From the NCBI GenBank assembly GCA_964647565.1, contig CAZYIM010000003.1, positions 1-64,000 on the forward strand: a stretch of DNA of 64,000 nt. The letters run 5' to 3'. How positions within the stretch are numbered: position 1 is the stretch's first letter; every line of letters starts with the position of its first letter. Under the pieces are notes generated by a model. That model was not told the DNA's origin. It saw only the letters and a program-made list of their open reading frames with translations, and did no database searches. Positions 4,617 through 48,027 of this stretch are shown here, piece by piece. A program made the position numbers and the translations under genes. This DNA is from an uncultured Methanosarcinales archaeon (GTDB lineage: Archaea > Nanobdellota > Nanobdellia > Woesearchaeales > CAZYIM01).

Positions 4617-4702
4617 AAAATTACTATTCCTTCCTGGCACAGACGGACAAATGGGATTTGTCCTACTCGTCTTCGACTCGCCTGGCCAGGAATAGTAATT
4701 TT
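4617..4702 (-). repeat. Dispersed structured intergenic element, copy 1
   Basis: 15-bp outer inverted repeat AAAATTACTATTCCT/AGGAATAGTAATTTT; core on minus strand GGCCAGGCG-hairpin-GAGTAGGAC-hairpin-CGTCTGTGCC. Confidence 0.75.
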
Positions 4703-4843
4703 ATTAACGCTCCATCCTGCCATGAATGCTTATTTTCTTTGTTAATTTATAATTATATTATTTACTATTTTTAATTAATTTTAATAATTAATTAATCATT
4801 TAATTATAACTGCATAAAAAGAATTTCTCGACGAGAAAATAGA

Positions 4844-5008
4844 TTAATCCTCTTTATCAGGATTATCTATCAAAGAATTCAGCTCTTCTTCAATGTCAGG
4901 TCCTTGGATTACTCCCTCTTTTCTCAGAATATTTATCAACGCCTGAAGTTTGAGCTCATTTATCTTGATCTTGCCTTTATTATTGATTATTTCCATCTCT
5001 TGATCCAT
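4844..5008 (-). CDS. Small hypothetical protein (54 aa)
   Basis: Manual translation MDQEMEIINNKGKIKINELKLQALINILRKEGVI...; AAGGTGA Shine-Dalgarno upstream. Confidence 0.6.
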   Translation of the reverse strand: MDQEMEIINNKGKIKINELKLQALINILRKEGVIQGPDIEEELNSLIDNPDKED

Positions 5009-5017
5009 AATATCACC

Positions 5018-5335
5018 TTATTTGCAATAACATTTACAAAGATGGCAGTTTGGTTCTCTGTTGGTAAATTCAACGTGATCAATTGTTCTTTCCAAGCTCT
5101 CGCATTGTCCTCTACATCTGACTTCACACATACCTTGGTCTTGCAAAGGGTGTAGAACACTACCCATAAAAGGGCCACATTTATCTTCGATGTCAAAGGA
5201 TATTGGTTCTGACCCGATTTTGGGAGCTAATATGAAAAATAAAGTAACTGCCACTGCTACAACACTGATTATCAGACCTAAGATTATAAGGTTCTTGGTT
5301 TTCTTGAAACTCTTAACTTTTCTTTTTCTTTCCAT
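5018..5335 (-). CDS. Membrane-anchored Cys-rich small protein
   Basis: Basic N-terminus, one TM helix, then a Cys-rich C-terminus (C...CEVRCRGQC...CHLCKCYCK); start uncertain. Confidence 0.65.
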   Translation of the reverse strand: MERKRKVKSFKKTKNLIILGLIISVVAVAVTLFFILAPKIGSEPISFDIEDKCGPFMGSVLHPLQDQGMCEVRCRGQCESLERTIDHVEFTNREPNCHLCKCYCK

Positions 5336-14334: not shown

Positions 14335-14378
14335 AGACAGAGCGTAAAAATTATTGGTTAAAGCTAAAAGAAAAGATA

Positions 14379-14464
14379 CTGCAACAACAATAATGGCGGG
14401 AAAACCAGTTTTCCTGCGGAAAACTTTGGGATGCGACATCCCATTTTCGCCATTGTTGTTGCAG
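14379..14464 (-). repeat. Structured intergenic element (three-way junction), divergent relative of the dispersed family
   Basis: Outer IR CTGCAACAACAAT/ATTGTTGTTGCAG, GGCG/CGCC inner helix with 3-nt bulge, two inner hairpins. Confidence 0.55.
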
Positions 14465-14608
14465 GAATTAAAATATGAACAATTGCTTTACGAAATCAAC
14501 TTACAAAACCAAAGAAATGTGAGTCATTTCTGGGCTTTGAAAATTAAAAATAATTCAAAAGGTTTAAATAAAACAAACAGCAGGGCCTGTTTAGGAGGAA
14601 AGGTTAGC

Positions 14609-23777: not shown

Positions 23778-23800
23778 TTAAACAGGACTATATCCTAAGG

Positions 23801-23892
23801 CTAGCCTTGGCGCAGATTCGCTTGGGGAAGGGCCCTTCGGGCTAGCGAATAGGACAGAAGTAGTCTGGCCGTCTGCCGCCAAGGAAGGCTAG
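23801..23892 (+). repeat. Dispersed structured intergenic element, copy 2 (subtype B)
   Basis: CTAGCCTT-GGCGCAGA...TAGGAC-hairpin-GGCCGTCTGCCGCC-AAGG-AAGGCTAG. Confidence 0.7.
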
Positions 23893-23980
23893 ACTTAAGT
23901 TGTATACTTCTCTAATCATTCCCTGCATTTTAACAAACTATATATAGTTGAAATAAAAACACTGCATCTAGGGTGGTAGT

Positions 23981-25315: not shown

Positions 25316-25331
25316 ATCACTAACTAAATTT

Positions 25332-25471
25332 AAAATATAGCAACAACTAAAAATAAAAACATTTTTGGAGCTTCAAACTCATCCTGAGTTTGAACAACAT
25401 AGGAACAGACGCATTTTGCGGAAGGCAAAATTCTACTCACCTTTGGCTCGCCTGGCAATGTTGCTATATTT
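25332..25471 (-). repeat. Dispersed structured intergenic element, copy 3
   Basis: Outer IR AAATATAGCAACA/TGTTGCTATATTT; minus-strand core GCCAGGCGAG..GAGTAG-hairpin-CGTCTGTTCC plus an extra hairpin. Confidence 0.7.
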
Positions 25472-25602
25472 CAATTTAGCATAAACTTACTGAATTGTGA
25501 ATCAATTCAGAAGTTTATGAAATTGCTGCGCTATTTCATAAACTTTATAAATCACCTTCGAATTCTGCACTATAAATTATTTATTTATTTAGGTGAAAAA
25601 AT

Positions 25603-25875: not shown

Positions 25876-25885
25876 GGTTTTTTCT

Positions 25886-26577: not shown

Positions 26578-26751
26578 TGAACGTAGTGAATGTGCGGGAA
26601 GGTTCAGGAATTCGTTTTTGAATTCCGCACATCTTCCCCCGCATTTATTATTAAATAAAGCTGTTCTGTGGAATTAGATTATTTAATTGTTATTACTTCG
26701 TGATGATTAAAATAATAAATTTTATATATAAACCTATTATTCTTGAATTGT

Positions 26752-27123: not shown

Positions 27124-27259
27124 AACTGGTCTTCTTATGAGGATTGAGTAAATACTGCGTATTTCCACAATCCCAACAAAAACTTGGGATTTTTGAGGAT
27201 TGCGAAATTACTACATAATTTCCACAATCTATATAAACTCTCGAGCTGATATTGCTCAT

Positions 27260-27751: not shown

Positions 27752-28074
27752 TTTTTGTTCTCGTCGAGAGATTTTTTCAAAAAATCCAGTTTATTTAAAA
27801 ATAAATGTGTTGTTACTTACATGTTGTGAACGTCTGAAAACTGGTAATTTAGTGTTCTCAGGGTTTAAAGCCATAATCTTCTTTTATGGGGTCTTCTTTC
27901 TGGCGAAAACTTTATAAAAAGAAATTAACTATTTGGGTCTACGTGAGTTGGCTATAGATGTCTGGTATGTGAAGGCATAATTTTATTCATGGTCTATCAT
28001 AGTCCAAAATTATGCAAACTTCATATGCTAGAAGTAATAATAGTCAAAACCAAAAAACACATGGAGGTGTTTAA

Positions 28075-30219: not shown

Positions 30220-30362
30220 AAAAAATAAAATTTTTTATTTTTTTTTTTTTTCTCTTTTTTAAAAGAGACACCAGAAATTAACCTTGTTAATTTCTCAGTG
30301 TTTTCCTATTTCTGCGACCCATAATCTAGAGATAGTAATAGATTTTCTAAGATAAAAAGCTA

Positions 30363-30480
30363 AAAATAACAGCACGGCTGGACGAAACTGACCTCGTTCC
30401 TAGACGTAGTCTTGGGTTAAGGTCAGTGGAGTAGGACAGAGCTTGACTCTGGCCGTCCGTGCCATCGCTGCTGTTATTTT
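30363..30480 (+). repeat. Dispersed structured intergenic element, copy 4
   Basis: AAAATAACAGCA/TGCTGTTATTTT outer IR; GGCTGGACG-ACTGACC...GGTCAGT-GGAGTAGGAC-hairpin-GGCCGTCCGTGCC. Confidence 0.75.
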
Positions 30481-30557
30481 AAGCTAGTCATTTAATTTTA
30501 GTTATAGTACTCTGTCTTTCCGTAAACTTTATATACCCTTATCCTCTAAAATGCTTC

Positions 30558-32441: not shown

Positions 32442-32527
32442 ATTTAACCACCAATCAGTAGTTACAAACCGAAAGATTTATATATTAGCTCTACGTATTG
32501 GATATTACCTGGTTTCTGGAGGAAAAA

Positions 32528-33340
32528 ATGAACAAGATAGACGTACCAAAAGATGCTGCAATTCTATTGCAGATAGTACGACATTACGACAAAGCAGTGC
32601 CTTTGAATGATAAAGGTGAAAAATTAAAATTTATCCCTGGCGGCACAAAAGACCAGATGCTTGAGCTTTCTGAAGATGGAAAACTGGCCGCTTCTATGGC
32701 TACCTCTCGGAATGGTAAACATCCTATTCCAGAAGGTCTAGAATATATCTTTGCTGGAGATTCTGGATTTGTAAGAGCCTGGCAGACAAATGAGAATGGA
32801 CTTTGGGGTGCAGGATATAGTATATTTGATCCTATTGTTCATGTTGAACACGACCCTGAGGTAGGCTTGGCTGGTGCTGACTGGACCAACAAAGAGGCAT
32901 TAGACGTCTGGTCTGCATATTCTGGAAAAGAAAAGATTGCTCAGATGATGGTGCAGTTCTATGAGCAGAGAGAATCAAAAAAAGGAACACTTTTGCCTTC
33001 GATGAAAAGATCTGCTGAAGGAGTCATTGCTCAGACACATTGGGGAATAACTTCTGCAATAAAATCTGGAAAAGAAAAAAGTCTAGTCAGAATTGCAACT
33101 CATGCGCCGACCATTGATGCAGCTGCAGTGACCCTATATGGATCACTTTTTGTTGGAGATGGTCAAGTTGTTGTTGGTGAGCAACCAAATGACTTTGGTA
33201 TGGGGGACATGATCACTGGCTTTGTAGGCAAAAACCAATTACAAGAGAAAAACCCTATTGTCAATTTCAATATAGACGGTAAGGGTGTAAGCTATACCAT
33301 GGATCGTCTCTTTGAGATGGCTGGAACACCTTACATATAA
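32528..33340 (+). CDS. Divergent histidine phosphatase superfamily-like protein
   Basis: LLQIVRH, S..VRAWQT and IATH motifs in histidine-phosphatase order. Confidence 0.55.
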   Translation: MNKIDVPKDAAILLQIVRHYDKAVPLNDKGEKLKFIPGGTKDQMLELSEDGKLAASMATSRNGKHPIPEGLEYIFAGDSGFVRAWQTNENGLWGAGYSIFDPIVHVEHDPEVGLAGADWTNKEALDVWSAYSGKEKIAQMMVQFYEQRESKKGTLLPSMKRSAEGVIAQTHWGITSAIKSGKEKSLVRIATHAPTIDAAAVTLYGSLFVGDGQVVVGEQPNDFGMGDMITGFVGKNQLQEKNPIVNFNIDGKGVSYTMDRLFEMAGTPYI

Positions 33341-33366
33341 TAAGAACACTTATTCTTTTTTATCTT

Positions 33367-34593
33367 TTATATTTTTACTGCCTTGTAGATATTATGCTTT
33401 TCTCTGAGGATCTTAACCTTGACTGTACCTGAATCCTTTTTACAGTCGACAATAGTTATACACCTGTTTTTAGCAACACCTATCCTCTCGTCGTCGTAAG
33501 GGCCTGGGCAGACTATCTCTGCCTTGAGAATTTCACCCTTTCTCATAGGCCGGTCCAGCTTGCTATCCTTCATGATGCCAAAGTCCTCCTCGAGATTCAA
33601 CAGTAACCGTTCGCCTGTTTTTGTTTCATAGTCTTTAAGCAGCTGCATGAACTCATCCCAGCTTCTTTGCTTGGCAGGATTCCTTCCTTTTGCATAGTTG
33701 AGGAAGTTCTGGACACCTAATCTGGGGTAACTCTTGTTTTGTATTTTTCCAGCCAGTTTTATCAGTTTCTCTACCTGATCCTCATTGATGCCTGGTACAA
33801 TGACTGGCGCCAATAGCAGCTCAATATCTGCCCTGACACAAATGTCTATGATTTTTAAGATGTGCTTGAGAGGGTATTTGACACCACATATTTTATCGCA
33901 CAATTCTTGCTCAGTTGCATTGATTGAGAGGTTAATCCTGTCCAGACCAGCTTTTTTCAGCTCATCAATACGCTTTTCAGTCAGAAAAAGCCCGTTTGTG
34001 TCCATAGAAACGATTTTAACGCTTTTTAAGGCCTTTAAATCCTTGACCAGTAAAACCAGGTCTGCATACATAAGGGGCTCTCCTTGAGGTCCTATATGCG
34101 CCTCAACAGGATTATGCTTGGCTGCGGCCAGCTTTTCAAACTCTTGCACAAGATAGTCCTCTTCGACAACATAGTCAGTTTTCTTTCTGGTTTTAGGCCC
34201 TGAATCTACAGAACAGTATATGCAGTTGAGATTACATAGCGTGATTGGCTTAATCTCGATGCAGTTGGTGTCCCTGTCAACAAGGCCAAACTCATTGGTG
34301 CCGACGAGCGGGATAGATGAATTTTGATGGATATAGACTGTCTTGTTACCAGTAACAGAATTTTTCAGCTCTGGAAAATAGCTGTTGAGCAGCAAAGAGA
34401 ACTTGTTCTGAGCTCTTTTTTCAGTAATGTTTGGAAAAAGTATGACATTTTTCTGTTTCTCATCTAATTTGCAGCTCCCAATAGCCTCTAATTCTGCCTT
34501 GGGAATATCAAAATAGAAGTATTTCAAAAAATTAACCCGGATCATATCATCTTTTTTAGAGAACTCAAAATCCCTGAACTCTAATTTAGCCAT
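33367..34593 (-). CDS. Radical SAM protein with C-terminal TRAM-like domain
   Basis: CNLNCIYCSVD, GEPLMY, TNG, GLDRINLS; conserved archaeal architecture. Confidence 0.9.
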   Translation of the reverse strand: MAKLEFRDFEFSKKDDMIRVNFLKYFYFDIPKAELEAIGSCKLDEKQKNVILFPNITEKRAQNKFSLLLNSYFPELKNSVTGNKTVYIHQNSSIPLVGTNEFGLVDRDTNCIEIKPITLCNLNCIYCSVDSGPKTRKKTDYVVEEDYLVQEFEKLAAAKHNPVEAHIGPQGEPLMYADLVLLVKDLKALKSVKIVSMDTNGLFLTEKRIDELKKAGLDRINLSINATEQELCDKICGVKYPLKHILKIIDICVRADIELLLAPVIVPGINEDQVEKLIKLAGKIQNKSYPRLGVQNFLNYAKGRNPAKQRSWDEFMQLLKDYETKTGERLLLNLEEDFGIMKDSKLDRPMRKGEILKAEIVCPGPYDDERIGVAKNRCITIVDCKKDSGTVKVKILREKHNIYKAVKI

Positions 34594-34633
34594 AGGAAAA
34601 GAGAGCAAAGAGCTTTTTTTAAAACTTGTTAAA

Positions 34634-34749
34634 AATCACAATGCGGCCAGGCGTAGCTGACCGCGTCCCTGTACGGAGTGCGGGGTTGAGGTCAGCGGAG
34701 TAGCTCAAAAGCAAAGCTTTTGAGCGTCTGTGCCGTTAGTGTTGTGATT
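34634..34749 (+). repeat. Dispersed structured intergenic element, copy 5
   Basis: AATCACAATGC-GGCCAGGCG-GCTGACC...GGTCAGC-GGAGTA-GCTCAAAAGC/GCTTTTGAGC-GTCTGTGCC-GTTA-GTGTTGTGATT. Confidence 0.8.
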
Positions 34750-34822
34750 GTTTTCTCATTATTTATTTTCTTAACTCTGCCTTTTCAAAAATTATATAAA
34801 CCCTTTTCAAATCTTTTATCGT

Positions 34823-35755
34823 ATGGTTGATGTGAAGATAACTTACGAGACCCTATTTGATCTCCTGCGAAGGGAGCAAAGTCATGCAGAATTACAGATG
34901 CTCGACGAGAACTTTTATAATGATGTGATTAGTTACCTGAAGGAAAAACAGGCGATAATTGAGAACAAAGGTGATCAGTCTGAGTTGTTTGGGGCGTCTG
35001 AAGGTGAGAAGGTCAAGATCCAATTTGAAAATGTCAAGAAGATCATTAAAGAGTTGTACGAGAAGAGAGAGAAGAAGATTCTGCAATTGGCTCTGAATAA
35101 GGTCAGGACTGGCTCAAATATTATAGACACATCAACCCTGCTTAAGGAAGAGCAGAAGATATTTGAAGATACTGCTCTTTTGCTTTCCAGATACAAGAGT
35201 GCTATACTTGAGCGTTTGTTGAGGCTGCAGGAACCAGATCTAAATGGTGTGGCTCTACCTTCTCAGTCATCATCTATGTCGCCAACTGCTTCGCCTGCAG
35301 TGGCAGATTCTCCTGAACCTTTGTCATCTAATCTTGAACCTAAGACTGCTTCTGTCGAGGAGAAAAAAGAGCCTGAAGATGTCACATCTGCTAAACCTGA
35401 AGAAGAAACCGAACAAGACCGTGAGGCTGCAAAAGAGCCTGAGCTGCCTTTAGAACCTGAAGATGAACGGGCAAGTGAACAGGTGAGTGAACAGGTAAAG
35501 ACTGCTACAGAAGAGACTCCTGCTCAGACCGAGGCAAACCCTACAGAAAAAGAGGTGGTTGAGGAAGCTGAAGAAATTTCGGAAGAGGAGTATGCGGAGA
35601 CTAAGATTGTCAGAATCTTGTCGCCGGTGCCCAAGTTTGTAGGTAAGGAAAAAGAGATCTACGGTCCTTTTGAAGAGGATGAAGTGGCCAACCTGCCTGC
35701 AATCATTGCGGATATACTGGTCAAGAAAGGTCGTGCAGAAGAGATGCAGAAATAA
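34823..35755 (+). CDS. DNA replication complex GINS (Gins51-type) protein with long acidic linker
   Basis: ITYETLFDLLRRE...LDENFY...REKKI A-domain; C-terminal B-domain VPKFVG...YGPF...LPAIIADILVKKGRAE. Confidence 0.85.
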   Translation: MVDVKITYETLFDLLRREQSHAELQMLDENFYNDVISYLKEKQAIIENKGDQSELFGASEGEKVKIQFENVKKIIKELYEKREKKILQLALNKVRTGSNIIDTSTLLKEEQKIFEDTALLLSRYKSAILERLLRLQEPDLNGVALPSQSSSMSPTASPAVADSPEPLSSNLEPKTASVEEKKEPEDVTSAKPEEETEQDREAAKEPELPLEPEDERASEQVSEQVKTATEETPAQTEANPTEKEVVEEAEEISEEEYAETKIVRILSPVPKFVGKEKEIYGPFEEDEVANLPAIIADILVKKGRAEEMQK

Positions 35756-35757
35756 TT

Positions 35758-36468
35758 CTATCTACCAACATTTATACTGAAACTATAAGATGCGCAAGGA
35801 CCTTTTCTATTAGCTAGCGGTGGTCCGCCAGAAGCGAATTGCACGTCAGAACAAGGCCCGGTGGAATATTGATTTTTTGGGTCTTTTGGCTTTCCATCAC
35901 AACTAATGACGCAACCGTTGACAGTAGCATCTGAAGACCCACGGTATCCTCCACTATCCCGACCTATGACTATTTGCATATCTACCCATTCTTTATCCCA
36001 AAAGTTTTGGATATTTCTATTCAACCTGCCCATTCCATGATCTCGACAGATCTCTACACCGACATACATATTGTTCCATTCAATTGGAAGCTGTTTGTTG
36101 CCTTTCTCAAATTCCAACCCGTTCTCTTTGGCCAACTGGCTGTCTGCAACATCTGTTGTCTCTTTTAGGTATTCCTGGACTGTGCCGTTGGCTATAAGCT
36201 CTGCTGCATTATAAAGCTTGCATTGGTCTTTGTATGAGGCTCCTGCAACCACGAGTGTGCCTGAGCTTTCTGAGGCTTTTCTTATCTTTTCGACGAGTTC
36301 ATCCATTCTTTCCTTTTTCATGACTCCTTTCTCTGCTAGGGCGAATTCAGGGGTCACGATTAGGTCATATTTGCCCATGTTGTTCAGAATTAATTCTAGG
36401 AATTTGTCGACGTCAGATCCAGTTGGATCTGTGCTCAGTTCAATTGCTAATAGGCTTATGTCCTTCAT
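35758..36468 (-). CDS. Carbon-nitrogen hydrolase (nitrilase superfamily)
   Basis: DLIVTPEF, LYNAA, YLK and GVEICRD give an E-K-C triad. Confidence 0.75.
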   Translation of the reverse strand: MKDISLLAIELSTDPTGSDVDKFLELILNNMGKYDLIVTPEFALAEKGVMKKERMDELVEKIRKASESSGTLVVAGASYKDQCKLYNAAELIANGTVQEYLKETTDVADSQLAKENGLEFEKGNKQLPIEWNNMYVGVEICRDHGMGRLNRNIQNFWDKEWVDMQIVIGRDSGGYRGSSDATVNGCVISCDGKPKDPKNQYSTGPCSDVQFASGGPPLANRKGPCASYSFSINVGR

Positions 36469-36513
36469 AGGTATTTTATTGATTTTCAACTATATAAATG
36501 TTTTGTTTTTTAT

Positions 36514-37403
36514 GGTTGTGTAGAAAAAGTTAAATACCCCAACAGCCGTGAGACTGTGTGGGGAGGGAATCGAGGTACCGATTCCCATGAAAAAGAAAAA
36601 AGAACAACTGAAATATAAACTTTACCAACAATTGCGCCATGTTGGCGCACCAAAATGGTTTCATCATTTTGGCCCAAAGAAATTTAGGTTGTTTGAGTTG
36701 GTTCTGGGTTTGGCTGTTCGTGCACGTTATTGTTTGAGTTATCGTCGTGCAGCCAGGTTTTTGAGCGAGGATTATGACCTTGATTTGCATTGGACAACCT
36801 TGCAGAAAGCTGCTGCAAGATTGCCTGTCAGTCTTTGGCAAGCTGTGCTTGCCAGCCTTGCTCCTGATGAGTGTTTTTCTGGAGCAGTTGACGCTAGTGG
36901 TTTTAACACAACAAATCCGAGCCACCATTATCTTCGTAGGATTAATGGTTCTTTGCCTAGATGTCCTGTAAAGCTGAGTGTTCTTGTCGATACTGACTCA
37001 AGAAAAATTCTTAGCGCAAGGATTCGTGCTAAACCTAGACACGACATACTGGACGTGCCCAGTCTTATCAGACAAAGTCCGGCAAAGCCATGGCAGCTTT
37101 TGATGGACAAAGGTTATGACTCTGAAAAGCTTCATGCTTTTCTCGACGAGAAAAGCATTTGGAGCGTAGCTCCAACCAGAAAAGATTGTAAGCGAGGAAG
37201 ACACAGGCGAGTCTTACGAGACCATTTTCCTAAAGGTGAGTATGGCTACAGAAACATAGTTGAAACCGTGTTTATGCGCCTAAAAAAACTCTTTGGAGGC
37301 TACGTTCGTAGCCATAAGGCTCGCCCCATGCGAGCAGAAATATATATGAGACTAATCATGTACAACATGATTGTCTGGCACACCAGACATTTTCTACACA
37401 ACC
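36514..37403 (+). mobile_element. IS5-family insertion sequence, 890 bp
   Basis: 17-bp TIRs GGTTGTGTAGAAAAAGT / ACATTTTCTACACAACC (1 mismatch); 9-bp direct repeats GTTTTTTAT at 36505-36513 and 37404-37412. Confidence 0.92.
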
Positions 37404-37504
37404 GTTTTTTATCACTGTTGAGTGGCATACTTCACTCCTTAGTATTTAAACATAACCTTTTTAAATACCCAACTTTTCCTAGCGTCTATTATGAAAAAGC
37501 CTAA
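36548..37504 (+). CDS. IS5-family DDE transposase
   Basis: AVDASGF, MDKGYDSE, YGYRNIVETVFMRLK. Confidence 0.92.
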   Translation: MRLCGEGIEVPIPMKKKKEQLKYKLYQQLRHVGAPKWFHHFGPKKFRLFELVLGLAVRARYCLSYRRAARFLSEDYDLDLHWTTLQKAAARLPVSLWQAVLASLAPDECFSGAVDASGFNTTNPSHHYLRRINGSLPRCPVKLSVLVDTDSRKILSARIRAKPRHDILDVPSLIRQSPAKPWQLLMDKGYDSEKLHAFLDEKSIWSVAPTRKDCKRGRHRRVLRDHFPKGEYGYRNIVETVFMRLKKLFGGYVRSHKARPMRAEIYMRLIMYNMIVWHTRHFLHNRFLSLLSGILHSLVFKHNLFKYPTFPSVYYEKA

Positions 37505-37802
37505 GACCATAAAAAGACATTGCCCATTTTGCAAGAAACATACAGAGCATAAGGTAATGCTAGCTAAAAAGAAGGCTAAAAGTAGTGCTCATCCTCTTTC
37601 ATTTGGTTCTAAGAAGAAGACCATGATGAGAGGCGAATGGCGAGGTCATGGCAACCTTGGAAAATACTCTAAGCCGCCTAAACCTAAGATGGTCGGCAAA
37701 AAGCTTTCTAAAAAGACTGATTTTAGGTACACCTGTGCCATCTGTAAAAAAACCCATATGCAGTCGCAAGGCATAAGGGCTAAAAAAGTTGAACTGGTTT
37801 AA
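37491..37802 (+). CDS. rpl44e: 50S ribosomal protein L44e
   Basis: CPFCKKHTEH...KKTDFRYTCAICKK. Confidence 0.93.
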   Translation: MKKPKTIKRHCPFCKKHTEHKVMLAKKKAKSSAHPLSFGSKKKTMMRGEWRGHGNLGKYSKPPKPKMVGKKLSKKTDFRYTCAICKKTHMQSQGIRAKKVELV

Positions 37803-38740
37803 AGCTCACTCTTCTTTTTAAGATAATTCTCAATCCTTATTTTGTGGGCCTCTATTGTGATTATAGATTGATCCAAAGACTTGATATTTGCGTCTTTCAG
37901 ATGTGTTAGAGCCAGATTATAATAATTCAGGCTTTCCTTAAAGTCTTCAATCTTTGGTGCTACCTTGTTATAGATTATGCCCAGGTTCCTGTTTGTCCAG
38001 GACTTGGCCTTCACTTCATTTGATTTTAACTCTCTTTTTGCCTCTATTGGCTTGAAATCATCTAAGAGTTTTTGGTATCCTTGGATGACTATATTGAAAT
38101 CCTGCAGTATTTTTGGTCCATCAAATTGTACCTTATAACTATTATTTGGATGAGCTTTTTGTGTCAGCTTATCATGACAGTTGTTTTGATGGTATCTGAA
38201 CAGCAATTGCTTGGGATATTGTACAACTAGTTGATCCAGATAGACCAGGGAATTTCCATAATCCTTTGCCCTGTAAAATTTGTCTGCGATTTTCCTTCTT
38301 GTAGTCCAAAGCCTGTTCTTAAGACCAAGAGTTTGTGGATTGATAGCTATTGCAGCCTCATAAATCTTCTCAGCCTCTTCAAACAGCTTTCTGTTGTAAA
38401 ATGTATGACCCTTGAACATGATCAGTTTGGGATCATCTTGCTTATACTCGTCTAAAAGTCGTTGGAATGCTTTCTCAGCTTCAGCAAACTTCTCAGCCTT
38501 GTAATGCGTCTGGGCAAGCATCTCTAAAAATGGCACCTCGTAGTCTGCATAGTCGTCAGGATTGGTCTTTATAGCCTGCTCAAGATTCTCGACCTTTTTC
38601 TCATAGGTTGTTGCTGTTTTTGCAGCTTCAAAATAGCCATATGCCACCCGTTTTGGGTCCTGTCCCTGCTGTTGTGCAAAACTCGCAGTACTTAATGTCA
38701 ATATGCTAAATAAGGTAATCAGTCCAGTCTTTAATCTCAT
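37799..38740 (-). CDS. Secreted tetratricopeptide-repeat protein
   Basis: Signal peptide MRLKTGL...ASFA; TPR-like helices (LAQTHYKAEKFAEAEKAFQRLL; GHTFYNRKLFEEAEKIYEAAIAINP). Confidence 0.8.
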   Translation of the reverse strand: MRLKTGLITLFSILTLSTASFAQQQGQDPKRVAYGYFEAAKTATTYEKKVENLEQAIKTNPDDYADYEVPFLEMLAQTHYKAEKFAEAEKAFQRLLDEYKQDDPKLIMFKGHTFYNRKLFEEAEKIYEAAIAINPQTLGLKNRLWTTRRKIADKFYRAKDYGNSLVYLDQLVVQYPKQLLFRYHQNNCHDKLTQKAHPNNSYKVQFDGPKILQDFNIVIQGYQKLLDDFKPIEAKRELKSNEVKAKSWTNRNLGIIYNKVAPKIEDFKESLNYYNLALTHLKDANIKSLDQSIITIEAHKIRIENYLKKKSEL

Positions 38741-38894
38741 GAATACCACCTCCTACTCTCCAAAACTGCATTGTTTATATAAAAATTTTTCATAGTGATA
38801 CTATTGTTGTATATAGATATAAGTTCTCCTAAATTCAACCAATAGTTTTTTAAATCCATTCCTTTTCTCCTCTTTAAAGTTGGAGGTAGATGAT

Positions 38895-39077
38895 ATGCAA
38901 TCAAAAGATCCAGATTCAAAGTTCATAAAGTTAAGATGTTCAAAGTGCAAGAACGAGCAGATCGTATTCGGCAAATCCGCATCAATTGTGAAATGCCTGG
39001 TATGTGAGAAAGTGCTTGCAGAGCCTACTGGCGGCAAGACAAAGGTCAAGGCAAGAGTACTAGAGGTACTGGAATAA
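38895..39077 (+). CDS. rps27e: 30S ribosomal protein S27e
   Basis: SKFIKLRCSKCKNEQIVF...CLVC...LAEPTGGK. Confidence 0.96.
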   Translation: MQSKDPDSKFIKLRCSKCKNEQIVFGKSASIVKCLVCEKVLAEPTGGKTKVKARVLEVLE

Positions 39078-39078
39078 A

Positions 39079-39855
39079 ATGCTTTTTCGTAAAGAGGGTT
39101 TTCCTGAAGAAGATTCCCTGGTATTATGTACAGTAACCAATATACAATATAATTCTGTTTTCGCTAGATTGAATGCTTATGGCAAGCAGGGCATGATCCA
39201 TATATCTGAAGTCAGTCCTGGAAGGATAAGAAACATCAGGGATTTTGTCAAGGAAGGTAAGATCGTAGTTTGTAAGGTCCTGAGGATTAATACTGAGAGA
39301 GGACATATTGATCTTTCTTTGAGAAGGGTCAACGAATCTCAGAGGAGAAACACCCTTAGCGATATGAAACAAGAGATGAAAGCAGAAAAGATCTTAAGTA
39401 TCTTTGCAGAAAAAAATAAACAGCCGGTAGAGGCTTTCTACAAACAAGTCTCTGAGGTCTTACTTGAACATTACGATTATATTTTTCAGGCTTTCGAGGA
39501 TGTAGTTGAGAATAACCAATCTTTGGTAAAGCTTGGCTTGAATAAAGAGATTGGTGAAAAACTTGAGGAACTGGTAAAAGAGAAGATCAAGCCAAAACAG
39601 ATCGAGATTACAGGCGATATAAAAATATCATGTTATGTTGAGGACGGTATCAATGTTGTTAAGGAGGCGCTTCTTGCTGCTGAGGGTGTGGGCAAGAATT
39701 TAACTATTAGATATCTAGGCGCCGGTACTTATAAGGTTGAAGTAATTGATAAGGAATATAAACCTGCCGAGAAGCTCTTGAAGCAGGCCATTGACAAAGC
39801 CCAGGCTATTGTTGAGGCCAAAAAGGGCGTGTTTGAATTTAAACGTACTGATTAA
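39079..39855 (+). CDS. eif2a: Translation initiation factor aIF-2 alpha subunit
   Basis: S1 domain GMIHISEVSPGRIRNIRD...GHIDLSLRRV; conserved synteny. Confidence 0.95.
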   Translation: MLFRKEGFPEEDSLVLCTVTNIQYNSVFARLNAYGKQGMIHISEVSPGRIRNIRDFVKEGKIVVCKVLRINTERGHIDLSLRRVNESQRRNTLSDMKQEMKAEKILSIFAEKNKQPVEAFYKQVSEVLLEHYDYIFQAFEDVVENNQSLVKLGLNKEIGEKLEELVKEKIKPKQIEITGDIKISCYVEDGINVVKEALLAAEGVGKNLTIRYLGAGTYKVEVIDKEYKPAEKLLKQAIDKAQAIVEAKKGVFEFKRTD

Positions 39856-39857
39856 GA

Positions 39858-40028
39858 ATGCTTCATATTTTAAAATGCAAGAAATGTGGCAGTTATGGGC
39901 TTTCTGATAAATGCTCATGCAGTGGGGAAAGGGTCAGTCCTAAGCCTCCAAAGTATAGTCCAGAAGATAAATACGGTAAGTATCGAAGAAAGTATAAGGA
40001 GATGGTCAAGGATGAAGTGGGACTTTAA
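39858..40028 (+). CDS. nop10: H/ACA RNP protein Nop10
   Basis: Manual translation MLHILKCKKCGSYGLSDKCSC...PPKYSPEDKYGKYRR. Confidence 0.92.
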   Translation: MLHILKCKKCGSYGLSDKCSCSGERVSPKPPKYSPEDKYGKYRRKYKEMVKDEVGL

Positions 40029-40785
40029 TCGGATGAAAGCGTTTAATATGACGAACTGCGTACTTATGGAGGGTCTTCCAGGTCTAGGTAATGTAGGCAA
40101 GATTTCAGTTGATTTCTTGATAGATGAGCTAAAGGCTGAAAAAGTCGTCGACATTTTCTCTCACCATCTTCCCAATTCTGTCTTTGTGAATGAGAATAAT
40201 CTTATCGAGCTTCCTAAGATCGAGATCTATATGAAAAAGATCAAGAACCGGAACTATCTTTTCTTGGCAGGTGATGTCCAGCCAATCGAGGAAGTGGCAT
40301 CATATCAGTTTGCAGAGGCATTGCTTGATTTCCTGCAGAACCAGGGTGTCAAAGAGATAGTGACACTTGGAGGTATTGGTCTTGATCATGTACCTAAACA
40401 ACCCAAAATATATGTCACTGGCAACTCAAAGCAGTTCCTGGCCAAGTTCAAGGTCTTGAAAGTGAAGAGTCGGGTTCATGGTATAGTTGGGCCCATAGTC
40501 GGCATATCAGGTATCTTACTTGGGCTTGCAAAAAAAAGGGAGATTAATGCAGCTGCTTTACTTTCTGAAACTTATGCTCATCCGATGTTCATAGGCCTAA
40601 AAGGTGCCAGGGAGATGGTCAAGGTCTTAAACAGGGCATATGATTTTGATATTTCTTTGAAGAATATGAACAAGGACATCAAAAGCTTTGAAAGGAACAT
40701 TAGGGATGAACTTGCTAATAAAAAATCCCCTCCGAGGATGCTTACCAAGTTTAGAAAGCATGATGTCATGAACTATATCGGGTAA
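40012..40785 (+). CDS. PAC2 family (proteasome assembly chaperone) protein
   Basis: EGLPGLGNVGKISVDFLI, GDVQP, IVTLGGIG; follows nop10 as in other archaea. Confidence 0.9.
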   Translation: MKWDFNRMKAFNMTNCVLMEGLPGLGNVGKISVDFLIDELKAEKVVDIFSHHLPNSVFVNENNLIELPKIEIYMKKIKNRNYLFLAGDVQPIEEVASYQFAEALLDFLQNQGVKEIVTLGGIGLDHVPKQPKIYVTGNSKQFLAKFKVLKVKSRVHGIVGPIVGISGILLGLAKKREINAAALLSETYAHPMFIGLKGAREMVKVLNRAYDFDISLKNMNKDIKSFERNIRDELANKKSPPRMLTKFRKHDVMNYIG

Positions 40786-40786
40786 A

Positions 40787-41134
40787 ATGATCATTAACCA
40801 GAGCAAGAATTCTGTTCTCGTGAATAATGAGAGGTTATGTAAAACAATTTTCTCTCATGCCAAGGGCCTGATGTTCTCTAAGAGAATAAAGGATTTCGGC
40901 CTATTTTTTATCATGCCCCGACAGAGGATCCATTCGCTTCATATGTGGTTTGTGTTCTATCCGATTGACATCCTTTTTCTTGACTTGAACAAAAAGGTAG
41001 TTGATCTTAAGTTCAATTTCAGGCCGTTTTCATTCTATACTCCAAGAAAAAAATGCAAATATATTGTTGAGCTCCCTCATGGAACCATACATAGCAGTAG
41101 GACCACTCTTGGTGATGTAATTAGTGTTGAGTAA
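40787..41134 (+). CDS. DUF192 family protein
   Basis: KGLMF, HMWFVFYPIDILFLD, YIVELPHG. Confidence 0.88.
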   Translation: MIINQSKNSVLVNNERLCKTIFSHAKGLMFSKRIKDFGLFFIMPRQRIHSLHMWFVFYPIDILFLDLNKKVVDLKFNFRPFSFYTPRKKCKYIVELPHGTIHSSRTTLGDVISVE

Positions 41135-41182
41135 TGCAATAATTTTTTAAACATCAAGATATATAGTTGATAAAGAGGTGAA

Positions 41183-41683
41183 ATGTTGGCTGAAGAGGTT
41201 ATTGATGATCCTATACAGAAAAAGAAGAGTATCAAGCGGAATGATCTTATCATCACTATAGGTTGGGTTTTGTTCATTCTTTTTTGCACTTATTTTCTAT
41301 TATCGTATTTCAAGGTCATTAAATTCTCTGTATACAAAGAAGACAAATGTTATATCAGTCAGGAGCTAATTTGCTTCAACTATGAAGCTAGCTACAAGGG
41401 TTATGTGAAACTTTATGTTCAAAATTTGGGTGATCAGTCTCTAAGGGATATCAAATACCTGCTTTATTCAGACAGCTGTGTTGAGCTCAACAACGGATCG
41501 ATGCATAAGCTGGATGAGATTGGATCAAGAGCTGTTATAAATGAATCTGAGGCTACTTTCAACTGTACATTTGAGCGTGCCAACTGGTTTGATGCAGATA
41601 TTGTTCTTGAGTATAAACAAGGTGATTCTGACGCTATCCAAACGACCCAGGGCAGAATATCAGTCAAGATAGAAGAAAAATAA
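41183..41683 (+). CDS. Membrane-anchored hypothetical protein
   Basis: GAGGTGA RBS, single TM helix, Cys-containing extracellular domain. Confidence 0.65.
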   Translation: MLAEEVIDDPIQKKKSIKRNDLIITIGWVLFILFCTYFLLSYFKVIKFSVYKEDKCYISQELICFNYEASYKGYVKLYVQNLGDQSLRDIKYLLYSDSCVELNNGSMHKLDEIGSRAVINESEATFNCTFERANWFDADIVLEYKQGDSDAIQTTQGRISVKIEEK

Positions 41684-41927
41684 TTCTATTCTTTTGAAAA
41701 AGTCTTTTTCTGGGGCCAAGCGAGTCGAAATAATAACTGTCTATGAATATAGACTCGGTCGATAATGCTTTTTCTGAAGCAATACGAGCGCCCAATAAAG
41801 TCTTTTTCCAAGTCTTGTCTACCACAAAATTACAAAATTGTTATTCAATTTTGAAGTTGTGACGTGTAAAAACACATCACAAACTTTATATATTACTCTG
41901 CTTCGCTTCTAACCTGGGTGAGTGCGT

Positions 41928-43187
41928 ATGGCTAAAATTATTGCGATCAATGCTAGACAGGTACTAGATTCTCGAGGAAATCCGACTGTTGAGGCAGATG
42001 TCTTTACAGAGAAGTTTGTGGGCAGTGCAATGGTGCCTTCTGGAGCCAGCACCGGTGTCTATGAGGCCCTTGAGCTTCGGGATGGTGGTAAAGTTTTTGG
42101 TGGCAAAGGTGTTTTGAAGGCTGTCAATAATGTCAAGAAGAAGATAGCTCCTAAGCTTGGTAGTATGACTGTTACCAATCAATCAGCTCTGGATAAAGCA
42201 ATGTTGAAACTGGACGGTACCAAGAATAAATCGAAGCTGGGTGCCAATGCAATCCTTGCTGTCAGCCTAGCTGCTGCAAGAGCTGCAGCTGCATCAAAGA
42301 GCAAGTTCCTTTTTGAATACCTGGCTGATATGGTTGGAAATAAGAAGTTCTACATGCCAATACCATTTGCAAATGTCATCAATGGAGGTAAGCATGCAGG
42401 CGGAAAGCTGCCCTTGCAGGAGTTTATGTTGGTTCCTACAGGTGCAAAATCATTTACAGAAGCAACTCAGATGGTGGCAGAGACATATCATATCCTAAAA
42501 GGGGTTATCAAGAAAAAATATGGTCCAAACGCAGTCAATGTTGGTGATGAGGGGGGATTCGCACCACCTATTGATACAGCGGATCAAGCCCTGAGCTTGA
42601 TGTCTAAGGCCATTTCAGAGTCTGGCTATAAGGGAAAGATTAAGATGGCCCTGGATCCTGCTGCCAGCGAGTTCTATGTCAAGGGGAAATATATTGGCAT
42701 GAAACCCGAGAGATTCGTTGATTTCTATGTTGACCTTGTCAAGAAATATCCTATTGTTTCATTGGAGGATCCATTTGATCAGGATGATTTCGAATCTTTT
42801 CAAGAGCTGACAAAAAGGATTGGCAGACGAGTGCAGATCATGGGGGATGACTTGACTGTGACTAATGTTGAAAGGATGAAAAAGTGCATTAAGTTAAAGG
42901 CATGCAACGCTTTGCTGGTCAAGGTAAACCAGATAGGTTCCTTGACAGAGACCATTGACGCTGTCAGGCTTGCCTGTGAGAATGACTGGCATGCTCAAGT
43001 TGCTAACAGGAGTGGAGAGACAGAAGATCCCTTTATCGCGGACCTTGCAGTGGCAATGGGCAACGGCCAGATAAAGCTTGGAGCGCCATGCAGGAGCGAC
43101 AGATGTGCAAAGTATAATCAATTGATAAGAATAGAGGAATACCTAGGCAGAAAAGCAACATATGCCGGCAAGATGATGTTTAGGTGA
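41928..43187 (+). CDS. eno: Enolase
   Basis: [48 protein letters not shown]. Confidence 0.98.
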
Positions 43188-43211
43188 AGTTAGCTAAGAA
43201 AAGAGGTAAAG

Positions 43212-43317
43212 ATAAATCCGCCTTGGCGAAGAGGGGACGAGGGTTGGCTCCGTCGGAGTGTCCCCTAGGACATTTTCGCAGAAAATGGCCGTCTTCAGCC
43301 AAGGAAGGCAGATTTAT
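43212..43317 (+). repeat. Dispersed structured intergenic element, copy 6 (subtype B)
   Basis: ATAAATCCGCCTT-GGCGAAGA-GGGGAC...GTCCCC-TAGGAC-hairpin-GGCCGTCTTCAGCC-AAGG-AAGGCAGATTTAT. Confidence 0.7.
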
Positions 43318-43329
43318 TAAAGTTCAATC

Positions 43330-44151
43330 ATGGACAAGATAACAGACATTAACTTATTGAAAGAGAAAGCAAAACTTCTTCGAAGGGATGTTATTATGCA
43401 GGTCCACGCTGCTAGCTCTGGTCATCCTGGCGGAAGCTTGTCTGCTGCTGATGTGGTGACAGCTCTTTTCTTCAATATAATGAACCATGACCCTCAAAAT
43501 CCTGAGATGTTTGAGAGGGATAGGTTTATTCTTTCAAAAGGGCATTGCTGCCCTATCCTTTATGCTGCCCTGGCAAGGACTGGTTATTTTGATGCTGAAG
43601 AGCTTAAGAGCTTCAGAAGGATAAATTCGAGGCTTCAGGGCCATCCTGCTAAATGCGACCTGCCATTTGTTGAGACTTCTTCAGGGCCGTTAGGCCAGGG
43701 ATTGTCTGTTTCTGTGGGTATTGCATTAGGCCATAGATTGAACAATAATTCTGCCACTGTCTTTTGTATGCTGGGAGATGGAGAGCTTGATGAGGGCCAG
43801 GTCTGGGAGGCAATTTTGACAGCTGCGCATTACAGGCTGGACAATCTGATTGCTATTGTCGATTATAATCGGTTGCAGATAGATGGTTTCAATGAGCAGG
43901 TAAAGAACCTTGAACCACTTGCAGACAAATGGAGGGCTTTTAACTGGAGGGTTATTGATATTGACGGGCATAAAATGGATGAGATCTTGATGGCATTGAA
44001 TGAAGCAAAGCTGCATGACAAGGGGCCTGTTGTGATTATTGCCAGGACCATCAAGGGAAAGGGCGTATCATTTATGGAGAACCAGGCCGAATGGCATGGC
44101 AAGGCTCCGGATGATGATCAGGCAGAACAGGCCTGGAGGGAGCTGGAATGA
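43330..44151 (+). CDS. Transketolase, N-terminal subunit
   Basis: SGHPGGSLS, RDRFILSKGH, LQGHP, GDGELDEG, KGKGVSFME. Confidence 0.96.
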   Translation: MDKITDINLLKEKAKLLRRDVIMQVHAASSGHPGGSLSAADVVTALFFNIMNHDPQNPEMFERDRFILSKGHCCPILYAALARTGYFDAEELKSFRRINSRLQGHPAKCDLPFVETSSGPLGQGLSVSVGIALGHRLNNNSATVFCMLGDGELDEGQVWEAILTAAHYRLDNLIAIVDYNRLQIDGFNEQVKNLEPLADKWRAFNWRVIDIDGHKMDEILMALNEAKLHDKGPVVIIARTIKGKGVSFMENQAEWHGKAPDDDQAEQAWRELE

Positions 44152-45113: not shown

Positions 45114-46564
45114 CTATAATAATTATTTCTTCTCCTTTGCCAAAGCGGCCTTACAGGAGTGTTTGGATCTTCCCATTTGTTCCAGGGCCCGAACCTGTTG
45201 GCTAAAGCGCCGAGTCCGCCAAGACCTCCAACCCACATCAAGGTGTAAAGGAAAACCATACCAAGTCTGTACCTCTTTACATTGACACCGCCAGGCCACA
45301 TTCGTTCATATACAGTCTTGGTGTCATTCATTATACTTTTAGCTTCTTTTTCTGCCCATTTTATGGTTTGTTTATCTGGTTTTGGGTTAAGTACAATCTT
45401 TGCGACCAGGCTGTCTGTCCTCGCCATGATATCTGGAACAGTTCTGTTAACATAATTTATATCATTCATGATGTCTGTGACTGAGTTATATACTTTACTA
45501 CCATGTTCGATGATGTCATCTACTGTTTTGCATCCCCTTGGCCTTTTTCTGTCCCTGAAGCATTTTCCCCCGCTTTCCTCGGAGTTGGTATTCTCATGAT
45601 AATAATCTGCATTTTTATGTCTGGTTGGCCTCAGTGGTTTAACATTTGGAAGTATGTCCTTCCATTTTTCTGCAGTTTTAACCAATCGCTTGTAGTTATT
45701 TACAATATTTTCCTGATTTAACATAAATTTCGAGCCAGACAACCAGATAAGCATCCTTTCATACATCTCCTCATATGTCATCTCTTCTTTTCCTGCATGC
45801 TCGATGACTCTCATACCTTCCTTGTTCATTTTAGAAGGTTTTTGCATGAGATATGGGAATGTGAGGTCGGAGTGATTTCTTATCAATCTTTGATGATCTG
45901 AGAGAGCTCGCTCACCCAATATTTTTGAAACCCAGTACCAATGCTTGGTATAGTCGTACTGGCTATCCCAATAACCTGAGACAGTTACATTTCCGTCAGC
46001 ATCTGTGCTGGTTGTAGTTACCCACACATCTTCATATTGGTCATCATGTTCTTCTTTCCACACACTATCATAGAGTTCAATTAAAGGTCTTAGCTCTCGC
46101 ATAGGTTCTGTATAGAAACTAAGTTGCTCCAAAACTAAATCTGACAGTTCATCGATCCTATTTGCTAGTATTCTCGGGCTGTGAGTGTGGAGTTTATCTG
46201 TGTCTCTTTTATGCATATGGATTGCAAATAGTTTGACTAACTCCTTCTGGCTAGAGGCCGAATCGCTGGCTAGACTCCAGGACTCGAAGTATTTATTGCA
46301 ATAATCATAATTAGAGGGAAGATATTCGTTTAGAGGATGAAGGTCCACTCCCCTGATTGCTGCATCTTCTTTCATCTGGGTGATCTCTGAGAATCTGTAC
46401 TCTGTTTTATTGGATCTTAAGGTTTCAGATATGTGGCCTTGGATTGGACCGATTACTAATCCTGCGACTATGGGGACTGCAAGTTCAATCCAGGTATCCC
46501 TGAGCAGCTTCATAGTTCCCCTGTAGAGTTTAGTCAGGAGTTTAGGTTTAGTTTGCTCTTCCAT
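45110..46564 (-). CDS. Hypothetical membrane protein (two terminal TM helices)
   Basis: 484-aa ORF, hydrophobic segments near both termini. Confidence 0.7.
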   Translation of the reverse strand: MEEQTKPKLLTKLYRGTMKLLRDTWIELAVPIVAGLVIGPIQGHISETLRSNKTEYRFSEITQMKEDAAIRGVDLHPLNEYLPSNYDYCNKYFESWSLASDSASSQKELVKLFAIHMHKRDTDKLHTHSPRILANRIDELSDLVLEQLSFYTEPMRELRPLIELYDSVWKEEHDDQYEDVWVTTTSTDADGNVTVSGYWDSQYDYTKHWYWVSKILGERALSDHQRLIRNHSDLTFPYLMQKPSKMNKEGMRVIEHAGKEEMTYEEMYERMLIWLSGSKFMLNQENIVNNYKRLVKTAEKWKDILPNVKPLRPTRHKNADYYHENTNSEESGGKCFRDRKRPRGCKTVDDIIEHGSKVYNSVTDIMNDINYVNRTVPDIMARTDSLVAKIVLNPKPDKQTIKWAEKEAKSIMNDTKTVYERMWPGGVNVKRYRLGMVFLYTLMWVGGLGGLGALANRFGPWNKWEDPNTPVRPLWQRRRNNYYS

Positions 46565-46626
46565 TTAGCAAAAGAAATGTTTTTTTATTTATAAATATTG
46601 CGCGGATTTACTACTTTAGAATGGTC

Positions 46627-47835
46627 TTAATGATGTTTCTTGAGCATTTTCATGTGCTTCTTCACAAAGCTATGGAAAACAATCGGAGAAATAATCATGG
46701 TGGCAATGGTCATAAAGACAATAGCTGTAAAAATATCTGTGGTTATCAGGCCATGTGACCTGGCAATCTCCGCTGCCACTAATTCAATCGCACCTCTGGA
46801 ATTCATGCCCCATGCAAGCAGGTTGCCATGTAGAAAAGAGCCTTTGGCGATAGCATTGCCCAATATAACTCCAATCCATTTGCCAGAGAGGGCCAGGACT
46901 GTAAGTATGATTCCCAGCAGAGGATTTTTTATCAGGCTTGCCAGATCTGTATTCAGACCTATCCATATGAAGAAAAAAAGTGACATAAAACCAAAAGTGA
47001 CAATCTTGATCATATCATCAATCTCCTCTTCCTCCTCAACACCTGCCCTGCCTTTCCGTCTCAGGGTGTATCTGACAAGTGCGCCAGCCACTAAAGCTCC
47101 AATAGCATAGCCTAGCTTGAGATAATCTGTAATTACTGCTATGATCAGCACAAAGATCATCGAAGCTGTAAAAAGATCGTACTTAGTTTGTTCTTTATTG
47201 TCAAAAAGCTTGGTGATGATAGGTATGAGTAAATACTTGATTACAAAGAGGATGATAGTGAAAATCCCGAAATCAAAAAGCAGTTTCAAATAACCAACAT
47301 CACTGATCTTGGAAGATGTGACCAGGACGCTGACTGCAGCTATCAACAAGATCTCAAAGGCGTCTGCAAGAGTGCCAGCCTCAATAATGGTTTTCCCGAG
47401 CCGAGTTTTCAAAAGGTTGTACTCTTCTAGCAGCATGACTGCAACAGCCTCTCCTGTCAAAGCAAGACCTGCTCCCATGATAAAGCACTGTAAGGTTCCA
47501 TATCCTAGGCTCTTGGTCACAAAAAAACCCAGAAAAAATGGGACAATAGCACTTAAGATAGAGATGATCACAATTCTATGGGATGATTTCTTTATATCTT
47601 TGATATCAATTTCCAATCCCACATAAAACAGCAAGAGAATCAGGCCGATGTCTGCCAGAGAGTGGATAAGATCAACAGACGTAATATCAAAAACTTGAGT
47701 ACGAATGACTGGCAGGCCCATTACAAGACCAACTACCAAAGGTCCTAGTACCCTCGGTAATCCAAAAGCAGAAAAGATCTTAATCAGGAGATAACAGGCA
47801 CCCAGACATAACAACAACACGAACAAAGCATCCAT
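46627..47835 (-). CDS. Cation:proton antiporter (CPA2 family)
   Basis: About 12 TM; IGLILLLFYVGLEID, GALVAG, FFIWIG, MNSRGAIELV. Confidence 0.92.
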   Translation of the reverse strand: MDALFVLLLCLGACYLLIKIFSAFGLPRVLGPLVVGLVMGLPVIRTQVFDITSVDLIHSLADIGLILLLFYVGLEIDIKDIKKSSHRIVIISILSAIVPFFLGFFVTKSLGYGTLQCFIMGAGLALTGEAVAVMLLEEYNLLKTRLGKTIIEAGTLADAFEILLIAAVSVLVTSSKISDVGYLKLLFDFGIFTIILFVIKYLLIPIITKLFDNKEQTKYDLFTASMIFVLIIAVITDYLKLGYAIGALVAGALVRYTLRRKGRAGVEEEEEIDDMIKIVTFGFMSLFFFIWIGLNTDLASLIKNPLLGIILTVLALSGKWIGVILGNAIAKGSFLHGNLLAWGMNSRGAIELVAAEIARSHGLITTDIFTAIVFMTIATMIISPIVFHSFVKKHMKMLKKHH

Positions 47836-47903
47836 TCTTGACCTCTTTTTAAGAAACCTTGGTATTAGTTTTATAAAAATGTTTCTAAAGGCAAGTTAAC
47901 TAT

Positions 47904-48027
47904 AAAATAAGCATTCACCCACGGCACAGACGCCCAAAAGCTACACTTTTGTGCTACTCCGCTGACTTGAATCCTCAACTCCGTAGAGGAACCCAGTCAG
48001 CTCCGCCTGGCCGTGAATGCTTATTTT
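47904..48027 (-). repeat. Dispersed structured intergenic element, copy 7
   Basis: 15-bp outer IR AAAATAAGCATTCAC/GTGAATGCTTATTTT; core closely related to copy 5. Confidence 0.8.

Follow-up and report, generated by a model that had tools for sequence, protein, structure and literature searches.

What keeps the same branched, GC-rich island in seven intergenic spacers of an archaeal genome? This question is raised by a stretch of DNA of 64,000 nucleotides (nt), here called the window, which comprises positions 1 to 64,000 of contig CAZYIM010000003.1 (assembly GCA_964647565.1). The source organism is deposited as an uncultured Methanosarcinales archaeon and is placed in the Woesearchaeales in the GTDB lineage. 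An earlier reading made from the letters alone (the sequence-only reading) had noted the seven islands and had proposed that selection acts on their structure, as RNA or single-stranded DNA. It had listed as candidates an undescribed non-coding RNA, a ribozyme, a protein-binding motif, and a non-autonomous element resembling repetitive extragenic palindromic (REP) sequences or miniature inverted-repeat transposable elements (MITEs). Here we describe the islands as copies of one element with a three-way-junction fold. They are probably a family of non-autonomous, MITE-like mobile elements, in which this fold is conserved in a strand-specific manner.

A three-way-junction fold shared by the islands

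Covariance model R2, which was built from other copies of the element, was run over the window with the filters off. All seven islands were returned on the strands on which they had been noted (E 3e-22 to 2e-9; Table 1). The outer stem of the element has 12-15 base pairs (bp), with an A-rich 5' strand and a T-rich 3' strand, and usually ends in G/C. Inside it, GGC is paired with GCC, and a 6-bp stem (CAGGCG/CGTCTG) with one bulged T leads to two hairpins that are separated by GAGTAG. On the 3' strand, a bulge of 4-5 nt lies ahead of the closure of the outer stem. The sequence-only reading had described this layout as common to all the islands. The order of the parts, from the outer stem to CGTCTG-T-GCC and the 3' bulge, stood; the junction is reduced to TAG in the islands at 23801 and 43212, and the copy at 25388 is degenerate, with GGC and GCC mismatched and an additional hairpin between the core and the 3' strand of the outer stem. 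The exact core pattern has 9 matches in the genome and none for the reversed control.

Pairing was counted in 55 copies from the source genome and 11 others (1595 pair cells), in an alignment fitted to the model. Standard pairs occupied 93.9% of the cells, whereas slid partners gave 34-51%. Changes on both sides were found in 28 of the 30 pairs, and the observed values were reached by none of 500 shuffles. Because this alignment had been fitted to the covariance model, the count was redone on 10 copies from the source genome that had been aligned with MAFFT, blind to structure. In this alignment, 95% of the cells were paired, against 43-46% with slid partners, and 18 of the 30 pairs had compensatory changes. 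The same three-way junction was predicted from it by RNAalifold. Together, the pairing and covariation data give the fold strong support.

The pairing is also strand-specific. Among the 55 copies, G-U or U-G pairs were observed 88 times and A-C or C-A pairs 14 times (21 versus 4 in the outer stem; 53 versus 4 in the 6-bp stem). This excess shows that the selected object is this strand, as RNA or single-stranded DNA, and not a double-stranded palindrome; the fold presumably acts in a single strand. Thus, covariation around a conserved junction, with selection on the structure, is borne out by the pairing (93.9% versus 34-51%) and by the excess of G-U over A-C.

About 20 junction nucleotides are near-invariant across the copies; near-invariance was seen in UGGC, in the junction G-A-G-U-A-G, in C-G-U-C of the 3' stem strand, in the bulged U and in GCC. 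Tandem G.A pairs prolong the first hairpin (41-118, GA in 46 and 42-117, AG in 36 of the 55 sequences), and an A.G recurs in the second hairpin. The first hairpin falls into size classes of about 9, 27, 41, 53-65 and 115-170 nt, and the copies range in length from 85 to 300 nt. Some copies have an additional 5' module and form composites of 220-300 nt, in which the similarity starts and ends exactly at the outer stem. The 4-nt bulge often resembles a tandem repeat of the neighbouring four bases, so that the helix is able to pair in two registers.

The additional 5' module consists of a short conserved stretch and a GC-rich hairpin (G000 C3:100690-100825, C8:61629-61749 and C28:28870-29020). 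In C28:28870-29020, it is apparently reverse-complemented and lies on the 3' side of the core, an arrangement that is odd for an RNA and fits a rearrangement at the DNA level.

Comparison with known RNA motifs and families

Three known motifs were rejected by eye. In the bulge-helix-bulge splice motif, the discrepancy is that both bulges of the element are on the same strand. The 5' junction resembles that of a hammerhead and is a covarying helix. In the case of the K-turn, the three junction nucleotides come after the G.A pairs and not before them.

The window gave no match in Rfam 15 at the gathering score. When 14 copies were searched at E<=5, only spurious matches to mir-1538 (25 bits; the gathering score is 78) and RT-6 (E 4.7) were obtained, with no ribozyme family among them, and three composite copies gave no match. 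Thus, the view of the sequence-only reading that the element is not a known Rfam family stands after cmsearch-type checks on the window, the 14 copies and the three composites. An origin from the Alu domain of signal recognition particle (SRP) RNA was also considered and rejected: the SRP RNA of this genome is on another contig, has the usual UGUAAC junction and bears no likeness to the element, and the SRP model did not match the copies. The listings and abstract beginnings returned by full-text literature searches, which were partly too broad, contained no description of the motif. The element family is uncatalogued.

Copy number and distribution

Covariance model R1, which was derived from a MAFFT alignment of 10 short copies, gave 31 matches at E<=1 in the source genome (2.68 Mb, 87% complete), so that it has at least 31 copies, composites among them. 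With R2, matches at E<=1e-4 were obtained in 36 of 150 other genomes of the same order, 1 to 25 per genome. Because 27 candidates were scored per genome, these copy counts are lower bounds; one of the 36 carriers (G131) enters by count only. The islands are therefore members of a dispersed family, with further copies both genome-wide and in DPANN relatives, as the sequence-only reading had anticipated. In a phylum-wide sample, 18 of 150 genomes matched and all 18 are labelled as the same order. Within this sampling, the family is confined to a single order of DPANN archaea, of the Woesearchaeota type.

When all species genomes were scanned with a loose pattern (at least 121 matching stretches), true copies were found at 5 of the 80 loci listed, and the matches were mostly due to chance. 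The true copies have titles of Woesearchaeota or Nanoarchaeota, together with one metagenome-assembled genome labelled Methanosarcinales. The copy on this last contig (L133) scores 83 bits, has a GC-rich outer stem and lies in the sense direction between lysW-like and lysX-like genes, which were identified by eye in the translated flanks. Unless the contig is mis-binned, the family extends beyond DPANN. A viral link was rejected: a single exact-pattern match among viral contigs was unconfirmed by the covariance model.

Turnover of the copies and carriage inside an inverted-repeat element

The copies are short, non-coding and numerous, with inverted termini that derive from the outer stem (usually G/A-run ... 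T-run/C), as in MITEs. Their positions are not shared between relatives. For example, in the congeneric genomes G148 and G023, the flanking genes are 69-74% identical and the element is present in a divergent-promoter spacer of G148 only; the single copy detected in G023 is at an unrelated locus. When two genera of one family were compared (15 versus 9 loci), one pair of loci had any flanking similarity, and in that pair the positions of the element differed. Close relatives for a comparison of filled and empty sites were sought in metagenomes with the radical SAM protein next to one copy; only two distant loci (37-42% identity) were returned, and neither has the element.

Recent copying is indicated in genome G048. 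Four near-identical copies, the identity of which continues past the fold into the terminal repeats, are inside a 182-bp unit with terminal inverted repeats of 16-17 bp and perfect 9-bp direct repeats (four of four copies; similar repeats flank two further variants). The repeat end occurs 32 times in the genome and the reversed control does not occur; it is often at contig ends. Other versions of this shell hold a different interior. Thus, in G048 the fold is the cargo of a classical cut-and-paste element. We take the ends of the shell to resemble the IS903 group. An autonomous partner of this outer element was not found among its ends, the unpaired ones being at contig ends or beside ordinary genes. 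As an observation in its own right, the shell is a separate MITE family (L237-L240 and L280-L283): its terminal inverted repeats begin GGCTTCATCC, about 32 ends are present, and its interchangeable interiors are 126-259 bp.

Several other features were observed among the copies. Two copies in G020 are 97% identical over 216 nt, and copies in G119 are at contig starts and ends. The source genome has orphan halves, one degenerate copy and composites. By sequence, the outer stems belong to a few discrete types, which genomes of different families have in common, and the inner hairpins differ. Copies less than 250 nt apart are head-to-head in all 10 listed pairs, and one further pair is partial. 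In the adjacent pairs (G000 C19:8297-8521 and pairs in G075, G070, G080, G020 and G147), the 5' ends face each other at a distance of 6-213 nt, and the partners are often of different subtypes.

Genomic context of the copies

All copies are intergenic. For 33 copies, context was classified with a crude caller of open reading frames (ORFs): 21 are between co-directional genes (15 sense and 6 antisense), 9 between divergent genes and 3 between convergent genes. The eighth copy in the window (14373-14468) is a further antisense case. The copies in the source genome are next to housekeeping genes that are unrelated to one another, and so are 24 copies in relatives (46 ORFs); no neighbour family recurs and only one integrase is present among the ORFs.

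A typical copy starts 0-30 nt past a stop codon and ends about 55-78 nt before the next start, and 14 of 18 sense copies begin within 50 nt of the upstream stop codon. In divergent spacers the copies are mid-spacer. These spots are the only dispensable DNA in so compact a genome. TATA boxes were read for S8e and for the divergent radical SAM and GINS genes, and in each case the box of the downstream gene separates it from the element; therefore, the element is not a leader. By eye, no promoter is present at a fixed distance from the copies. In the case of the enolase-transketolase copy and a few others, no room is left for a promoter, and these copies must be co-transcribed with their neighbours. 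Because at least some copies must be co-transcribed, RNA is the more likely form in which the fold acts. The RNA contigs of two metatranscriptome runs, in which small parts of the window were represented, covered only 29037-30110 within the S-layer gene; the five elements in 23700-43400 were all left uncovered, which is uninformative on expression either way.

The copies in the window are given in Table 1. The orphan half at 4708..4737 has an exact match to the outer-stem motif and no 3' partner on the contig. The copy at 23793..23902 is flanked by a 309-amino-acid (aa) ORF and purD. A 6-bp direct repeat on both flanks was found only for the copy at 30360..30485.

Table 1. Copies of the element in the 64,000-nt window, with scores of covariance model R2
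Feature	Position	Strand	R2 score	Structure and surroundings
Short-type copy	4614..4703	-	85.3 bits, E 3e-22	About 100 nt upstream of the S8e promoter, outside the S8e leader
Orphan 5' half of another copy (5' strand of outer stem and core start)	4708..4737	-		Directly upstream of the intact copy at 4614..4703
Eighth, divergent copy	14373..14468	-	30.2 bits, E 8e-6	Same outer stem, GGCG and two hairpins; shortened junction
Variant copy	23793..23902	+	56.4 bits, E 1e-13	Medium G-rich first hairpin; junction TAG only
Degenerate copy	25332..25473	-	42.3 bits (for 25388-25473)	Antisense to both neighbouring genes
Long-type copy	30360..30485	+	75.3 bits	First hairpin about 40 nt; after S-layer gene
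Long-type copy	34629..34756	+	69.8 bits	Between divergent promoters of radical SAM gene and GINS gene
Variant copy	43209..43322	+	55.9 bits	24 nt past enolase stop, 12 nt ahead of transketolase start; sense
Long-type copy	47901..48028	-	78.7 bits	Mid-spacer of two divergent genes, 63 and 65 nt from their starts

Among the proteins of the window, Pfam matches include S8e, GINS, LSm and S-layer, which mark the source as archaeal, and no tRNA is present in the window. Two further regions were noted. From 48092 to 64000, there is a long same-strand row of genes for proteins of 440-500 aa with the PEP-utilizers mobile domain. At 26132-26532, position 26132 is connected directly to 26199 (66 nt skipped) or to 26532 (399 nt skipped) in DNA contigs from two metagenome runs, which suggests a repeat region that varies in length between strains.

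Search for a mobilising enzyme

Searches for a transposase in the source genome are limited by the assembly, which is 87% complete, and by the fact that repeats are often left unassembled; within these limits, no Y1_Tnp domain over the cut-off, no TnpB domain and no reverse transcriptase were found. One 17-bit match to Y1_Tnp was obtained in a frame that looks hydrophobic by eye. When the 2155 ORFs with 150 aa or more were compared, only two pairs were at least 70% identical, and one of these is FtsZ.

The single DDE_Tnp_1 match in the whole assembly is at 36548-37504 (+) of the window, between a CN-hydrolase gene and the gene for ribosomal L44e, the start of which it overlaps. Candidate 17-nt inverted repeats of this gene are at 36514-36530 and 37387-37403; they are unlike the ends of the element, and the right arm is inside the ORF.

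In the sample of the order, Y1_Tnp was present in 18 of the 36 genomes with the element and in 37 of the 114 without it, a cross-count which assumes that the same 150 genomes entered both searches (the same handles recur). High-copy carriers without Y1_Tnp include G020 (18 copies, 99% complete), G147 (11 copies, 100% complete), G075 and G004. A linked HUH/Y1 partner, which the sequence-only reading had suggested looking for, is thus missing over the cut-off in the source genome and present in only half of the carriers. Because Y1_Tnp is missing here and in complete genomes with many copies, a mechanism by REP sequences and a REP-associated tyrosine transposase (RAYT) is unsupported.

Discussion

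Among the candidates of the sequence-only reading, a non-autonomous element of the MITE or REP kind is the best fit, given the turnover, the near-identical copies and the carriage in an element with terminal inverted repeats and target-site duplications. The outer helix encloses a three-way junction made of GGC/GCC, the 6-bp stem, GAGUAG and two hairpins, the first of which can expand and is closed by tandem G.A pairs. In the mechanism that we propose, copies would be gained and lost quickly, and would land or survive only in the free DNA that separates a stop codon from the following promoter, or two divergent promoters from each other. They would also be able to nest, to sit head-to-head and to hitch-hike inside other transposons. 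The fold may be kept because the spread of the element depends on it, or because insertions are thereby rendered harmless to the neighbouring transcripts.

Four points weigh against this explanation. A cognate transposase was not found in the source genome. Beside the outer stem, a clear direct repeat of the target-site kind was seen in a single copy out of 54. It is not obvious why a DNA element that moves by cut-and-paste should need a strand-specific fold with G-U pairs, so that our reason for the retention of the fold is in part inferred. Moreover, compensatory changes among diverged copies in one genome could mean that the host selects each copy as an RNA.

The last point leads to a multi-copy structured RNA that serves the host, either as a small non-coding RNA gene or as a cis-acting module (a protein-binding platform or an element for RNA stability or processing), with mobility being secondary. 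The strand-specific covariation is strong even among the diverged copies of one genome, the near-invariant junction nucleotides include the tandem G.A and the recurring A.G, the same core is found within different outer shells in different genomes, and some copies must be co-transcribed in operons. All of this would be expected of such an RNA. However, divergent promoters flank 9 of 33 copies and another 6 run antisense to the genes on either side, no consistent promoter at a fixed distance was seen by eye, the element is missing from 114 of 150 genomes of the order, positions are not conserved, and decayed and orphan copies exist. We therefore consider a host-serving RNA unlikely, though it deserves serious weight. 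A self-cleaving ribozyme or RNA-processing signal, which would ride on a mobile element and keep insertions harmless by cutting or insulating read-through transcripts, is less probable still and would be a surprise. Ribozyme-bearing mobile elements have precedents, the element is carried on mobile DNA in G048, and its compact set of invariant junction and bulge nucleotides is similar in number to the cores of small ribozymes; however, no Rfam ribozyme family was matched even at E<=5 and no cleavage site can be named.

Movement as folded single-stranded DNA by a Y1 HUH transposase (RAYT or TnpA) would place the element among REP sequences and bacterial interspersed mosaic elements (BIMEs), or among palindrome-associated transposable elements (PATEs) derived from IS200/IS605. 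GTAG directly ahead of a hairpin, the strand-specific fold, the lack of a target duplication at the outer stem, and the head-to-head pairs, which recall BIMEs and REPINs (pairs of REP sequences), are all in keeping with this. The enzyme is what argues against it: neither Y1_Tnp over the cut-off nor TnpB domains were found in the source genome, and among the relatives Y1_Tnp occurs in 18 of 36 carriers and 37 of 114 non-carriers, several high-copy carriers being without it. Accordingly, we regard this route as very improbable. A riboswitch or leader, or an intrinsic transcription terminator, is already contradicted by the context counts and is hardly credible. The start of 14 of 18 sense copies within 50 nt of a stop codon and the T-run at the end of AT-rich versions speak for such a role; but GC-rich versions have no T-run, divergent genes flank 9 of 33 copies and convergent genes only 3, the orientation is mixed, the downstream genes have no common class, and the TATA boxes of the neighbours lie between element and gene.

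Prokaryotic MITEs with structured interiors are known, such as Correia, ERIC/IRU, BOX, RUP, bcr1 and the SM MITEs of Sulfolobus. Like these, the element is small, non-coding, multi-copy and intergenic, has pairing ends that fold back, is modular and nests, and is patchy in distribution with variable copy number; in G048, the unit that encloses it has both terminal inverted repeats and target duplications. Unlike them, it keeps a three-way-junction core by compensatory changes across many families of an order, its strand-specific fold contains G-U pairs, the outer stem lacks a target duplication, and no cognate insertion sequence was found. With REP, BIME and REPIN sequences and with PATEs, it shares GTAG beside a hairpin, inverted pairs, the lack of a target duplication and a strand-specific structure, but it is larger and branched, is not a simple palindrome, and a Y1 HUH gene is lacking in the source genome and in 18 of 36 carriers. 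The attC sites of integrons are also recognised as a folded strand and have a long stem with extra-helical bases on one strand and a terminal structure of variable size. In contrast to attC sites, the copies form no arrays in the same orientation, are between housekeeping genes in both orientations, and have a conserved internal junction sequence. In IStrons, retrozymes and short interspersed nuclear elements (SINEs) such as Alu, a non-autonomous mobile element likewise carries, or consists of, a conserved RNA-type fold, and the topology of the SRP Alu domain, with two hairpins joined by a purine-rich junction, is similar. However, the element has no sequence relation to the SRP RNA of this genome, no reverse transcriptase is present, and no ribozyme family is matched.

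The junction might itself be active. It could be an RNA module, that is, a new self-cleaving or protein-recruiting fold that excises the element from transcripts or insulates it, or it could be the recognition fold of a single-strand transposition system with an enzyme outside the known transposase families; we consider this idea distinctly unlikely. It is unusual for a mobile element with no recognisable transposase to preserve a branched, strand-specific fold through compensatory changes in an entire order, and this points to either an unknown route for moving DNA or an RNA function that makes insertions tolerable. The genomes of DPANN archaea are tiny and tightly packed, yet many of them hold tens of copies. 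For annotation, these GC-rich islands are liable to be taken for small-RNA genes, riboswitches or terminators, and they also break assemblies. The covariance model from this work would allow the family to be catalogued.

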